From Deferribacterales bacterium (GTDB lineage: Bacteria > Chrysiogenota > Deferribacteres > Deferribacterales > Geovibrionaceae), in assembly GCA_050253335.1 (NCBI GenBank), contig JBFWJG010000014.1, positions 1 to 45,553 of the forward strand: a stretch of 45,553 nt of DNA, given 5' to 3'. Of this stretch, positions 39,001-45,553 are shown in pieces. The stretch's first letter is position 1; every line of letters starts with the position of its first letter. Made by a program: the position numbers.

Positions 39001-42000
39001 AGACGGACGACGGAATAATGTATGTGACCGCTGACGGAAATATCGCTTACTGGAACAGGGGATGCGAGAGGATTTTCGGTTTCTCGGCCGCTGAGGCGGC
39101 GGGAGCGAACCTTGATATTATCATCCCCGAAAAACACAGAAAAAGGCACTGGGACGGTTTTCACAAGGTTCTGGAAACCGGCCGCACAGCCTATTCCGGC
39201 AAGATGCTCAAAGTTCCCGCCATAAGAAAGGACGGGGAAAAGCTCATAATCGAATTCAGTATGCAGATTATTGAACAGGAAGGAAAAAACGCAGGGTTTA
39301 CGGCTATTGTCAGGGATGTTGCACAGAAATAAAGAAAAAAGCGGGCGGAAAAGCCCGCCCGCTTTTTAAACGCCCTCGACATGATTCGAACATGTGGCCT
39401 ATTGATTAGGAATCAATCGCTCTATCCTCCTGAGCTACGAGGGCGTGAGAAAAACTTCTATAACAAGGCAAAATCATTGTCAAGAAATAATACCGCAAGG
39501 GGGATATTTTGCGCCAGAGAGACGAAATAATGATGAATAATGATAAAATGACACGTAATTCACAGCTTCTAACTATGTCTTTTTTTTCAGAGGCTTAGGC
39601 CATACTTATCTTGCGCATGACACCTTCGGCGTGCTATTATTCAGGCATTATGGGAGAAATAATAACCTTCGCGAATAAAAAAGGAGGGAGCGGAAAAACT
39701 TCCGCTGTTCTTAACATAGGCGCGGCGGCAGGGAGCAGGGGGAAAAAGATCCTTCTGATCGACCTTGACCCGCAGGCGCATCTCTCCTACTGGTCCGGCG
39801 TTAACACCTATGACACCTACCCCAATATCTACGGCGCGGTGCTGGGTGAATATTCCGCCGATGACGCTCTTTTTAAGCCCTCCCACGGGCTTTATGACAT
39901 TATCCCTGCCTCCACGGGCTTCTCTCACCATGATCTGCGCAGGCTCCTTGACGGAGTAAGCGTGGAGGCGAAGCTCGCAAAGTGTCTTTTAAAAATCAGG
40001 GAAAGATACGACTATATCTTCATAGACACGCCCCCGACCGTGGCGGTGCTTACGCTGAATGCCCTTGTGGCTTCCAGATTCGTGCTTATTCCCGTTCTTC
40101 TGAACTTTCTTGCCATTGAAGGTCTGGCGCAGCTTGCCCAGAACATTTACCGCATAAACATGGCGCACAATCCTGATCTTCGGATTATGGGCATCATCCC
40201 CAACCAGCACGACATCAGGAGCAACCATGCCAAAAAGGTCATGAAGGAGCTTTACGAGAACTTCGGCGAGGATATGGTCACCCCCAGAGTCAGGAGCGAT
40301 GTCAAAATAGCCGAGGCTCCGGAGGCAAGGCTCCCCATAAATCTTTACGCTCCGGCAAGCAGAGGAGCTATGGATTTCAGCATTCTGACCGATTACATCC
40401 TCAGCAAAGTCGAGGAGGAAGCGGGAGTGAAGAAATGAAACGCTGCGTGGGTATAGATTTCGGAACCAGCAATTCCATGATAGCCGTCTGCAGGGACGGC
40501 GGAACAATAGATATTATAAGCTCTGAAAGCGGCAAGAGGTATCTGCCGTCCGTTATATATTTCAAAAACGGAAACGAAGCCGTGATAGGGGACAACGCAA
40601 AAAGCATGCAGCTTCTGGAGTCCGAACACACTATTGCGAATATCAAGAGATACATGGGGACAGACATGAAGTTCCCGCTCTACGGAAGGGAGTACAGGGC
40701 TGAGGAGCTTGCCTCGCTTATTTTCCGCAAGCTTAAAAAAAGCTTCGAGGATTACTCCGGCGAGAAGGAGGCGGACGCGGTTGTCACTGTTCCCGCTTAT
40801 TTCGATCATTACCAGAGGGAGGCTGTGCGCTCCGCCGCCGAGAATGCGGGGTTCAATGTTCTGCGTCTTCTGAACGAGCCCACATCAGCCGCTCTTTTTT
40901 ATAATAACATAGGCAAAAACACAGGCGATGTCTGCATGGTTTTTGACCTTGGAGGAGGCACGCTGGACATAAGCCTCATCGAGATGAAGGCGGACTGCTG
41001 CAAGGTTCTTTTCACAGGCGGCTCCACCGAAATCGGCGGAGTGGATTTTGATGTTATGGTTGCGGAGTATTTCATTGAAAACTTCCGCAGACAGCACGGG
41101 ATAGACCTTAAAAGCGACCCCATAGCCTATCAGCAGCTTCTTTTTCAGGCTGAGAAAGCAAAGATGGAGCTTTCCTCCCTGAACGAGGTGAATCTGGTTG
41201 TGCCTTATATCACTGTCACCAAAAAAGGCGCCCTGCATTTCAAGGAAACAATCACCAGGGAAACATTTGACAAAATCACAGCCCCCCTCACAAAGGGGAT
41301 AAAAAGCATAATAGACAGCCTGCTTGAATCAAACGGGCTTAAAGTCGAAGATATCGCAAAGGTTCTCCCCGTTGGCGGGGCATCCCGAATTCACAGCGTC
41401 CGCAGGCTTATAGCCGATATTTTCGGGGACAGGGTGAGGAAAGACATGAATCCGGAGGAGGCCGTAGTGAGCGGCGCCGCGGTGAACGCTGCAATGCTTT
41501 CCGGTCTGATGAACGACAAGGTTTTTCATGATGTAACCTCGCACAATCTGGGCATAGAGGATGATGACGGAAACTTCGAAGTAATCTTAAAGAAAAACGA
41601 AGTTTACCCTGTTGAGTTCAGCATGGTTTTCACCACTTCAGAGCCCGAAAGGAAAAATATTACTGTTCATATTCTGCAGGATATGGCAAAATCGTCACTA
41701 AACACAGGGGATTCCGTTGCTGAGAATCCCGAGCATTTCGTCAGTCTGGGCAGATTTTCAGTTGATATAGACATACCGGACGGCGGGGAACCTTTAATTG
41801 ATATTTCATTCATGATCGATGAAAGCGGAATCATAAGCGTTAAGGCGAAGGATGTCCGCTCGGAAAAAGAGACAGACTTCACACTCAGACTGAAAATTGA
41901 AAATGAGATTTTGAATACATTGGAAATATTCTGAGATTATTCGGAGGAAAGCTATGAAAAAACTGGCAAAGCCGTCAAGCCTTGAAGGCAGAACCGGGCT

Positions 42001-45000: not shown

Positions 45001-45553
45001 ATCATAGAGATAGAGAAAACGCTTGTGGGATTTATCGCAGACAGGGTGAGCGAAGTGCTCAGCGTGCCCGAATCCTCCATAGAGGAACCGCCCAAGGTTT
45101 TTGCCGAGTCCGGTTCCGAGATTGCCTCAATCATCAAGGCGGAAGAAGGGGAAAGGCTCGTTATGATTCTGGAAAGCGATAACCTGCTTCAGGCAAAAGA
45201 GGTGGAAGCCCTCAGAAAGCTTGCCCAGCAGGAAGGAGGAAGTTTTTCCATGAATGAAGCATCAGCCTCCGCAGATGAGGAAAAACAGATAGTCACATTC
45301 ACAATTGAGGATGAGGAATACGGAATCTTTATAGAAAAGGTTCAGGAAATCAACAGATACATAAACGTGACGAAAGTGCCAAAGACTCCGGCCTTCGTGG
45401 AGGGGATAGTAAACCTCAGAGGCGAGGTTATTCCTCTCATAGATTTAAGAAAGAGGTTTGAGCTCCCCGTCAGGGAAAAGGACGAGTTCACAAGAGTGAT
45501 AATAGTTAATCTCGCCAGTGTCCGTGTGGGCTTTGTGGTGGAAGATCGGAAGA

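Follow-up and report, generated by a model that had tools for sequence, protein, structure and literature searches.

At the right end of the window, the stretch of 45,553 nucleotides from a Deferribacterales bacterium (contig C14) that was analysed here, four ORFs on the plus strand (39650-45542) code for a ParA-like ATPase (parA), an Hsp70 without helical lid (hsp70L), a soluble DosM-type chemoreceptor with a CZB domain (dosM), and a protein consisting of three CheW domains (cheW3). This composition of one operon had been described in the genome-wide survey's note, and all four ORFs were found again. The features of this region are:

39336..39367, no strand assigned: bidirectional terminator-like hairpin, 14-bp stem with 8 GC pairs, T runs on both sides
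39370..39445, minus strand: tRNA-Arg (CCT), flanked by the nar and che operons
39650..40438, plus strand: Soj-type ParA-like ATPase, 262 aa (AAA_31 3.1e-42, CbiA 8.9e-20)
40435..41934, plus strand: lidless Hsp70 (Hsp70L), 499 aa, Pfam HSP70 406.5 bits, with nucleotide-binding domain (NBD), linker and beta-sandwich substrate-binding domain (SBD)
41954..44194, plus strand: soluble DosM-type receptor, 746 aa, MCPsignal 205.8 bits in two stretches, CZB
41954..42013, plus strand: codons 1-20 of dosM with the KKLAKP and TG[I/L] motifs, candidate Hsp70L binding site, the motif co-occurring with Hsp70L
44212..45542, plus strand: 5' part of the triple-CheW gene (CheW3), CheW three times, open at the contig end (ORF to 45552) and continuing on contig C16
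45543..45553, no strand assigned: adapter-like 11 nt, AGATCGGAAGA, non-genomic, where C14 diverges from C16

The hairpin closes the narGHJI-narK-PAS operon upstream and delimits the region of the che operon on its 5' side. parA and hsp70L overlap by 4 nt (ATGA), gaps of 19 and 17 nt separate hsp70L from dosM and dosM from cheW3, respectively, and a GGAG-type ribosome-binding site is present in both gaps. Candidate starts for the ParA-like ORF are 39611 (TTG, the longest), 39617, and 39650 (ATG), of which the ATG at 39650, giving the Walker A context MGEIITFANKKGGSGKT, is likely the true one. The survey's note had let ParA begin at 39617 and CheW run to 45552; its ORFs and their strand hold, but both outer limits move inward, to the likely ATG and to the start of the 11 adapter-like nucleotides. 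Once these 11 nt are removed, the end of C14 matches the beginning of C16 exactly over 126 nt, and therefore the operon continues there, as that note had thought probable, with cheB, STAS, cheY, HEAT, cheR, cheY, cheA, REC, and a 490-aa gene. The whole operon thus comprises 13 genes, four at the window end and nine on C16, and CheW3, whose third domain is completed on C16, computes to a full length of 508 aa. At 90-99% identity, contigs from RNA libraries span the boundaries of dosM with hsp70L (X3, X4, and X8) and with cheW3 (X4), a weak hint that hsp70L, dosM, and cheW3 are co-transcribed, given that they come from four runs of a single study in which DNA carry-over is possible; parts of the operon that these contigs leave uncovered count neither for nor against it.

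The receptor corresponds to what had been noticed before, a soluble protein with two signalling domains and a CZB domain. Its first MCPsignal stretch covers residues 140-282, a second signalling tip has its conserved residues at about 561-626, and no hydrophobic 19-mer is present (maximum Kyte-Doolittle 19-mer mean 0.89). The CZB domain (residues 436-500) scores 44.9 bits against a cut-off of 29.4 over the full profile (1-64), and a histidine, a cysteine and HxxxH, presumably the zinc ligands, are visible in DH...KC...PHNHVH. Tandem MCP signalling domains with two conserved tips, an adjoining triple CheW, and cheA, cheB, cheR, and cheY in the same cluster (on C16, contiguous by the 126-nt overlap) identify the cluster, judged by its gene content, as a cytoplasmic chemosensory system of class F9, with a putative two-layer array. 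DosM/CheW3 sandwich arrays and the F9 class have been published (PMC7534058, PMC9321776), and clusters of Geovibrio thiophilus, Denitrovibrio, and Deferribacter are listed as F9, including a Geovibrio cluster with the rare CZB-DosM, CZB being noted for only two of the DosMs in that table (PMC9321776, Table S6). The clusters of Deferribacteres begin there at dosM, and parA and hsp70L are unrecorded. The main text of neither PMC7534058 nor PMC9321776 contains an occurrence of Hsp70 or DnaK, and paper searches on Hsp70 or DnaK together with DosM or CheW, with cytoplasmic chemoreceptors or chemosensory systems, and with ParA yielded no description of a ParA-Hsp70L module. The part without a precedent in these papers is thus the module, whereas the F9 class, the sandwich arrays and the CZB-DosM of Geovibrio were already in print.

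In Vibrio cholerae, the F9 system (cluster I, with DosM VC1403, triple CheW VC1402, and CheA VC1397) displays the same order of receptor and triple CheW (PMC7534058), and both operons, the Vibrio side being taken from publications, also encode CheB, a HEAT protein, CheR, CheY, and CheA. The operon studied here differs in that its DosM carries a CZB domain, and its hsp70L has no counterpart mentioned in the main text of either paper.

Hsp70L covers positions 2-74 and 101/103-497/501 of the 599 positions of the HSP70 profile and stops after the beta-sandwich at residue 499, so that the helical lid (SBD-alpha) and the C-terminal region (profile about 500-599) are missing. A grpE-dnaK-dnaJ set is encoded on C45, its DnaK scoring 915 bits, and the survey's view of an Hsp70 without lid beside a normal chaperone operon elsewhere is thereby borne out; a third HSP70 match in the genome (C90) turned out to be MreB. 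Hsp70L remains below the equivalog cut-offs for DnaK (NF001413, 416.4 versus 648 bits; TIGR02350, 410.8 versus 822.55 bits) and for HscA (TIGR01991, 324 versus 708.55 bits). Aligned to the genome's own DnaK, it has a deletion of about 24 residues in lobe IB, which may alter the contact with an exchange factor, and it possesses a clade-specific insert at about residues 417-430 as well as a hydrophobic tail at the C-terminus, the last residues of which are LEIF. Across 57 sequences, the NBD residues D8, K71, E148, D171, and T176 do not vary, G173-T176 being kept as well, and an AF2 model (pLDDT 90.1, pTM 0.89; beta-strands at 363-483) superimposes on ATP-state DnaK (7kzu) with a TM score of 0.91 and an rmsd of 2.4. 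From sequence and model, the ATPase domain looks intact and the protein functional. Since the hydrophobic linker of DnaK is altered in Hsp70L, classical Hsp70 allostery is not assured. The arch reads IEDD (E375, D376, and D377 at least 90% conserved), in contrast to IET-L/M-G in DnaK, and such an acidic arch fits a basic client peptide. Neither a J-domain protein nor a nucleotide-exchange factor is encoded in the cluster, and Hsp70L keeps R or K at what we take to be the position equivalent to the J-contacting arginine of DnaK. The same content of NBD, linker, and SBD-beta is found in the lid-truncated DnaK and BiP constructs 7kzu, 5obu, and 7a4u; these are laboratory truncations, whereas Hsp70L is a natural conserved family with further changes in lobe IB (the deletion), in the linker, and in the arch (IEDD), and with a conserved C-terminal tail.

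Hsp70L orthologs (at least 51% identity, frames of about 500 aa) occur in 16 of 68 Deferribacterota genomes, including the one studied here (G000), and CheW3 in 17, namely these same 16 and G012. All 15 loci fetched from relatives keep the order ParA-Hsp70L-DosM-CheW3-CheB-STAS-CheY-HEAT-CheR-CheY-CheA. The 4-nt overlap of parA and hsp70L in the window recurs in 12 of these 15; of the other three, two are ambiguous, their ORFs being called longer, and in one a gap of 2 nt separates the genes. Scanning metagenome contigs for the clade linker motif D[VI]TxHxLGIEDD yielded 12 loci, 11 of them coding for lidless Hsp70s at 40-70% identity and one being a chance match. Wherever these contigs left room, a DosM-like gene lies directly 3' of hsp70L (10/10), followed by cheW3 where the contig reaches that far, and parA lies upstream (8/8). 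In every readable locus that encodes it, hsp70L therefore sits immediately 5' of a dosM-type gene, both in 16 Deferribacterota genomes and in all 10 metagenome loci with room, which come from several distant lineages, even if the cluster is rearranged as in L116, where cheR-cheY-cheA are upstream and not downstream as in the operon studied here. In a phylogenetic tree, 30 sequences, for part of which the gene context was read, group with the F9-linked proteins in a clade (SH-aLRT 100, stem of 0.54) apart from 13 canonical DnaKs, and among the readable loci (15/15 relatives, 10/10 metagenome loci) no gene of this clade was located outside such a cluster. The association noticed in the survey between an Hsp70 and adjoining chemoreceptor genes is in consequence stronger than it had appeared. 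A lidless Hsp70 linked to fliM in three other Deferribacterota genomes has a DnaK-like hydrophobic linker and an IETE arch and was not included in the family; it forms a weakly supported sister group (SH-aLRT 88).

Broader searches were less informative. All 80 loci listed from a contig scan with the lidless alignment, which used universal Hsp70 motifs, are canonical DnaKs (34-40% identity), the best 150 of 95,366 matches from a profile search of representatives are mixed multi-domain Hsp70s that provide no usable census of the family, a protein atlas search with Hsp70L returned generic truncated-DnaK clusters only, and none of five arbitrary genomes checked has CheW3. ParA and Hsp70L are both missing from six other F9 clusters, one on an Eleftheria plasmid (the one usable F9 cluster from a plasmid search with DosM) and five in Clostridia, each in a different genome of the 399 that were scored. 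Neither protein is thus a general requirement of F9 systems. We propose that ParA and Hsp70L constitute a conserved accessory module of the F9 array.

The ParA-like protein belongs to the ParA/MinD fold family, with a deviant Walker A motif (KKGGSGKT) and an AAA_31 score of 144.9 bits, and the closest solved structures are Soj proteins (6iub, 5.5e-37; 1wcv). Its score for the curated ParA partition family is below the cut-off (NF041546, 84.2 versus 180 bits), and a parB gene is absent from the operon genes of C14 and C16. In G012, a 99%-complete genome, parA is located immediately 5' of dosM (98-nt gap), cheW3 follows, and Hsp70L is encoded nowhere; ParA and the array can thus manage without it. 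In other lineages a TPR protein is inserted between ParA and Hsp70L, and in three of them it begins with a ParB-like basic peptide (RKNLGMGLDLLL type); in L117 the TPR protein has no such peptide, and Hsp70L there carries a long basic N-terminal extension. Basic N-terminal peptides are a pattern reported for ParA-activating proteins (PMC7993993), and we count these features in favor of a joint role of ParA and Hsp70L. Deferribacterota have no TPR adaptor, however, and a chain of tethers as suggested by those lineages is accordingly not directly transferable to the operon studied here. A comparable arrangement is that of PpfA and TlpT in Rhodobacter sphaeroides, where a ParA-like gene adjoins a soluble receptor whose basic N-terminal extension makes TlpT the suggested activator of ParA (PMC7993993), although PpfA and the present ParA are likened here by description. 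The R. sphaeroides system is of another chemosensory class and has no Hsp70 partner, whereas a lidless Hsp70 lies between ParA and receptor in the window and, in other Hsp70L lineages, a TPR protein with ParB-like peptide as well.

A basic N-terminal tail is also present in DosM, with 15 K/R among residues 1-50 and the motif MKKLAKP...RTGLVKK. Residues 1-130 are 97% identical to a Geovibrio ferrireducens protein, and a homolog search with this segment returned CZB-bearing proteins (29/29), the named ones all but one from Deferribacterota, and no DosMs from taxa free of Hsp70L. KKLAKP was considered as a ParA-specific peptide and discarded, because it occurs in the five Clostridia clusters without ParA. 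TG[I/L] after KKLAKP is present in 26 of 26 Hsp70L-linked DosMs (scored by eye in L123 and L127) versus none of seven unlinked ones (G012, Eleftheria, and five Clostridia), counts that are phylogenetically non-independent and represent about five or six linked lineages versus three unlinked ones. A within-genus contrast is provided by G014 and G012. In a complex prediction with the SBD of Hsp70L (residues 358-499) and residues 1-60 of DosM, the pair scored 0.40 and the best of three controls 0.01; between runs, 63% or more of the contacts are shared, and the pLDDT of the partner is 52 or higher. In the calibration, 116 of 157 solved complexes pass, as do 2 of 215 mismatched pairs; with scores of 0.60 or below, only 18 of the 157 pass, together with both of these mismatches, counts that are approximate here since our own alignments were used. 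Solved Hsp70-peptide complexes exist, so the pass may reflect likeness to them, and the prediction lends weak support to binding of the DosM tail by the SBD.

HscA with IscU exemplifies a specialized Hsp70 that serves a single client through a defined binding motif. Hsp70L resembles HscA in being a DnaK paralog encoded beside its presumed client, with a separate housekeeping dnaK operon and a short conserved client motif proposed, but lacks a lid and a dedicated J-protein gene nearby, and its client is putative. A functional tie between an Hsp70 paralog and a chemosensory-type pathway is described for StkA of Myxococcus xanthus, an Hsp70-like regulator upstream of the Dif pathway (PMC4319316, PMC8265645); compared by description, its link to Dif is genetic, and operon adjacency to a DosM-type receptor is not seen in these accounts.

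Tentatively, with a probability of about 45%, we favor a reading in which Hsp70L has DosM as its single client, holds it by the tail, and together with ParA serves to assemble or position the array; the binding itself, any connection with the activity of ParA, and the consequences for arrays are inferred. Following the HscA/IscU logic, Hsp70L would be a specialized, essentially single-client chaperone whose lid-free beta-sandwich with its acidic arch grips the short basic N-terminal tail of DosM at TG[I/L]. Together with the nucleoid-type (Soj-like) ParA, it would govern the timing and the site at which the DosM/CheW3 lattice is nucleated or partitioned, either as an ATP-regulated tether joining ParA and array or as an assembly or holdase factor keeping DosM tails accessible. 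A bolder version, which we regard as unlikely, makes Hsp70L a structural or regulatory subunit of the lattice that clamps the DosM tail and thereby links the F9 array with proteostasis or with the ParA gradient. The array would then read chaperone occupancy, as a chaperone-titration sensor wired to the CheA kinase, or alternatively travel on the nucleoid, held by an Hsp70 tether that ATP can switch; if true, this would be a use of Hsp70 that we have not found described for any chemosensory or ParA cargo system.

Hsp70L might also be the input itself, a sensor on the DosM tail titrated off by unfolded proteins, in such a way that proteotoxic stress modulates the F9 kinase, by the titration logic of DnaK-sigma32 and BiP-IRE1. 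An open, lid-free substrate site would exchange clients fast, and adjacency to dosM, the tail motif, and the weak binding prediction fit sensing as well as assembly. In addition, 98% of DosM homologs are without any sensory domain and the F9 arrays of V. cholerae are reported to be stress-induced (PMC9321776). We nevertheless consider sensing quite unlikely, as the present DosM already carries its own CZB sensor, the acidic IEDD arch suggests a specific basic client and not generic unfolded chains, and co-conservation with ParA and translational coupling point to positioning. These last observations, the coupling of parA and hsp70L and the upstream position of ParA in all metagenome loci with room, would also suit an Hsp70L that acts on ParA or its activator and not on DosM, remodeling ParA dimers or holding an activating peptide and thus tuning the ATPase cycle. 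Hsp70 binding motifs consist of a Leu-rich core with basic flanks, and the ParB-like peptides of the TPR proteins resemble them. However, G012 possesses ParA without Hsp70L, and the motif that tracks Hsp70L resides in DosM and not in ParA, and we therefore assign a low probability to ParA as the client. Finally, F9 clusters undergo frequent horizontal transfer (PMC9321776), by which linked genes can hitch-hike, and many F9 clusters do without Hsp70L, which could therefore be a general auxiliary chaperone, or serve an unrelated client, and ride with the cluster as part of a transferred block. This seems very unlikely to us, since its place directly 5' of dosM is kept across lineages at only about 40% identity and in otherwise rearranged clusters, no member of the clade was encountered away from such a cluster in readable loci, and the full DnaK/DnaJ/GrpE set of the genome covers general duty.

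While the structure of F9 arrays has been solved in outline, their function is poorly understood, and signal input, placement, and inheritance are open questions (PMC7534058, PMC9321776). The ParA-(TPR)-Hsp70 module offers concrete candidates for signal input and for placement or inheritance, and TG[I/L] of DosM is a short, mutable motif for testing them. That ParA and Hsp70L are paired again in several bacterial groups far apart from each other suggests that this chaperone is reserved for a single signalling machine. Beyond chemosensing, Hsp70L defines a natural family of lidless Hsp70s in which the linker is altered, the substrate arch is acidic, and apparently a single client is served. It thus offers a clean system to ask for which tasks an Hsp70 requires its lid and classical allostery.

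The window closes with four closely packed open reading frames on the plus strand (39.6-45.5 kb). These frames and their profile matches bear out the genome-wide survey's note, which had described a ParA-like ATPase, a lidless Hsp70, a soluble CZB receptor with two signalling regions and a triple CheW cut by the contig end:

From 39650 (likely ATG start), plus strand, Soj-like ParA with the deviant Walker A motif KKGGSGKT (AAA_31, E = 3.1e-42)
40435-41934, plus strand, lidless Hsp70 of 499 residues (Hsp70L), matching the Pfam HSP70 profile
41954-44194, plus strand, DosM-type soluble receptor of 746 residues (two MCP signalling regions, CZB domain)
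Open at the contig end, plus strand, triple CheW (CheW3), fourth frame of the group

Among solved structures, Soj 6iub and 1wcv are closest to this ParA. The end of parA and the beginning of hsp70L overlap by 4 nt, and no hydrophobic 19-mer occurs in the whole 746-residue DosM. The upstream boundary of the operon is clear: 5' of parA come a narGHJI-narK-PAS operon, a strong terminator that acts in both directions and, on the opposite strand, a tRNA-Arg. The nar operon (31505-39332), directly 5' of the che operon, is complete for a respiratory nitrate reductase of the narGHJI type and also encodes an MFS (NarK-like) transporter and a stand-alone PAS protein of 120 residues; 5' of narG lies a 140-residue frame without Pfam match.

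The final 11 nt of the window (45543-45553), AGATCGGAAGA, are adapter-like, and the 126 nt preceding them are identical to positions 1-126 of contig C16 of the same genome, which allows the two contigs to be merged and identifies the break as an artefact of assembly. What the survey had guessed, namely that the operon continues on C16, is now shown by this identity and by the che genes found there. CheW3 is completed to 508 residues and followed by genes for CheB, a STAS protein, CheY, a HEAT-repeat protein, CheR, CheY, CheA (974 residues, two Hpt regions), a REC protein and one last protein, beyond which thiF-like and cysS genes are convergent:

G000:C16:7670-9142 (L017), last operon gene, protein of 490 residues without Pfam match

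This protein is kept in all related clusters checked (27-84% identity), resembles proteins of spirochaete 'BB0569 family chemotaxis protein' clusters in protein-language-model features (score 0.96) and shows a weak structural likeness to MCP hairpins; as a lead only, it could be a divergent soluble receptor residing in the same array. In one compost study, four RNA-library runs yielded contigs that are 90-99% identical to the operon and span the hsp70L-dosM and dosM-cheW3 junctions. This is only a hint of co-transcription, as the contigs belong to a relative and could derive from carried-over DNA.

The array part of the operon is known biology. A double-signalling-domain receptor together with a triple CheW defines the F9 chemosensory class, and in Vibrio cholerae DosM holds together the layers of a two-layer cytoplasmic array (PMC7534058). 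F9 clusters were reported for 72 species in a survey of 2,781 genomes, whose Table S6 lists Denitrovibrio, Deferribacter and Geovibrio thiophilus, the latter as [DosM W3 B S Y. R Y A Y], and notes a CZB domain for only two DosM homologues (PMC9321776). Geovibrio proteins are the nearest named relatives of the window's proteins, and with the F9 table this makes both the array genes and the CZB-containing DosM known. The Deferribacteres clusters in that table begin at dosM (PMC9321776, Table S6).

The Pfam HSP70 match of Hsp70L stops at about position 497-501 of the 599 in the profile and lacks positions of about 75-102 as well; Hsp70L also scores far under the curated cut-offs for DnaK and HscA. 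A normal grpE-dnaK-dnaJ set is present on contig C45, as the survey had stated, and the only further HSP70-profile match in the genome is MreB. Alignment with the DnaK of the same genome and a 57-sequence family alignment reveal invariant ATPase residues (D8, K71, E148, D171, G173-T176), a lobe IB deletion of about 24 residues common to all members, and a conserved x-F/L-H/Y-D-V/I-T-S-H in place of the hydrophobic DnaK linker. The peptide pocket keeps its hydrophobic core; the arch over it reads I-E-D-D instead of the I-E-T-L/M of DnaK. The chain ends past the beta-sandwich with a short tail conserved by subgroup, LEIF/IKIY in Deferribacterota and RRGxxLxV[ILM] in others. The AF2 model is confident (pLDDT 90.1, pTM 0.89), with TM 0.91 both to ATP-state, domain-docked DnaK and to an engineered lid-truncated DnaK. 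Given the kept ATPase residues and pocket core, the altered arch and the predicted fold, Hsp70L looks like a working Hsp70 engine whose substrate site is open and acidic. In the Hsp70L alignment (A3), subgroups tend towards one of two layouts: either the N-terminus is minimal and the C-terminal tail basic (RRGxxLxV[ILM]), or the chain starts with a long basic extension and ends right after the beta-sandwich; the P0041/L124 protein has both basic elements.

Close orthologues (at least 51% identity, frame of about 500 residues) are encoded in 16 of 68 Deferribacterota genomes, the present one included, and CheW3 in the same 16 plus G012. The order ParA-Hsp70L-DosM-CheW3-CheB-STAS-CheY-HEAT-CheR-CheY-CheA is kept in all 15 loci fetched from relatives, and the 4-nt parA/hsp70L overlap in 12 of them. 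To reach beyond the phylum, metagenome contigs were scanned with the linker motif of the clade, which yielded 12 loci, eleven with lidless Hsp70s of 40-70% identity and one a chance match within unrelated genes. A DosM-type receptor gene is next downstream of hsp70L in 10/10 metagenome loci with room, CheW3 follows wherever the contig reaches, and a ParA-like gene lies 5' in all eight with upstream room. The remaining genes are differently ordered (cheR-cheY-cheA is upstream in locus L116), and the Hsp70L-DosM adjacency has thus been kept through rearrangement. The L116 order would also account for the three unnamed genes 5' of dosM in the published Syntrophomonas wolfei entry, [RYA...DosM W3 B]. 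In a quick maximum-likelihood tree (46 rows), 30 lidless proteins, for part of which gene context was read, group with the F9-linked ones as a long-stemmed clade (SH-aLRT 100) apart from 13 canonical DnaKs.

The CheW3 frame of G025 (C3:156460-157758) has one in-frame TAG, and metagenome contigs L125 and L127 carry Deferribacterota-type clusters split into many short frames, probably owing to assembly or sequencing error rather than being pseudogenes. Three genomes of another Deferribacterota family (G001-G003; L033, L034, L035) encode a second lidless Hsp70 of about 499 residues (e.g., L034:15501-17000, minus strand; 39% identity), with a DnaK-like hydrophobic linker and an IETE arch, in the context cheB-fliM-fliN/Y-hsp70-cheY-(weak CheZ-like)-cheA; on the tree it forms a separate, weakly supported sister group.

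A candidate client site lies in the DosM N-terminus. All Hsp70L-linked DosMs start with M(A)KKLAKP, a general DosM feature since KKLAKP occurs in the Clostridia DosMs named below too, and a few residues on follows [R/K/N]-T-G-[I/L] and then basic residues. TG[I/L] is present in 26/26 linked N-termini, two of them scored by eye owing to a variant or frameshifted start, versus 0/7 DosMs of F9 clusters without Hsp70L (G012, an Eleftheria terrae plasmid and the five Clostridia genomes with CheW3 among 399 scored), counts that are not independent and correspond to roughly five or six lineages with Hsp70L and three without. G012 belongs to the same genus as the Hsp70L-positive G014, and its DosM tail has KSTLS in place of the RTGII of relatives. 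Complex prediction for Hsp70L 358-499 with DosM 1-60 gives weak support, 0.40 versus 0.01 for the best of three controls; at least 63% of contacts are common to the runs, with a partner pLDDT of 52 or more. Of 157 solved complexes, 116 reached the pass mark, as did 2 of 215 mismatches; at scores of 0.60 or below, just 18 of the 157 passed, along with both of those mismatches. These counts are approximate here as our own alignments were used; the prediction may also draw on memory of solved Hsp70-peptide complexes. At the other end, all DosMs (alignment A4) finish with a conserved ...A(S/D)EMQ plus two or three residues (AY, VF, TF, NM, VN), which recalls the tether peptides at the C-terminus of some receptors; this end could also be a TPR ligand.

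TPR-containing proteins are encoded between parA and hsp70L in non-Deferribacterota loci:

L116:6440-6823, TPR protein
L119:6206-6817, TPR protein
L124:6443-6895, TPR protein
L117:9267-11153, minus strand, TPR protein

Diverse cargo adaptors carry grafted, short and basic N-terminal peptides that activate ParA-type ATPases; McdB, and TlpT of the Rhodobacter cytoplasmic chemoreceptor cluster, are suggested examples (PMC7993993). Three lineages have a small TPR protein (127-203 residues by ORF calls) whose N-terminus resembles the ParB activating peptide (RKNLGMGLDLLL, KGLEDLL and GTSLVDILF), whereas the L117 protein is a REC-NMT1-TPR fusion without this peptide and the Hsp70L of that locus bears a long basic N-terminal extension. 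The TPR proteins might activate ParA or serve as adaptors, and might bind the C-terminal tail of Hsp70L. This complementarity of peptide and extension, taken with the translational coupling seen in Deferribacterota and the invariable order ParA-Hsp70L-DosM, suggests that Hsp70L is part of the ParA-cargo connection.

An essential role of Hsp70L is opposed by G012, a Deferribacter-group genome without Hsp70L in which parA is followed after 98 nt by dosM (L129, G012:C8, 7381-10192), and by six other F9 clusters from which both ParA and Hsp70L are missing. That hsp70L merely hitch-hikes in these operons seems very unlikely to us, considering its company with dosM across distant lineages. It is also unlikely that Hsp70L acts on ParA and not on DosM, a possibility to be set beside the overlapping parA and hsp70L genes on the one hand and the motif in linked receptor tails on the other. 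Hsp70L as a chaperone-titration input, which an engine with an open substrate site might provide, appears improbable.

The words Hsp70 and DnaK are absent from the main texts of PMC7534058 and PMC9321776, and no description of a ParA-Hsp70L module was found in the literature searched, although supplementary neighbourhood figures may bear on its novelty. The survey's observation is confirmed and extended: within the searches made, the ParA-Hsp70L module, with its separate family of lidless Hsp70s tied to dosM across several distant lineages, is apparently undescribed. Our preferred reading, with a probability of roughly 0.45, is a single-client Hsp70 whose substrate site would bind the N-terminal tail of DosM as sole client and which, together with ParA, would serve assembly or positioning of the array.
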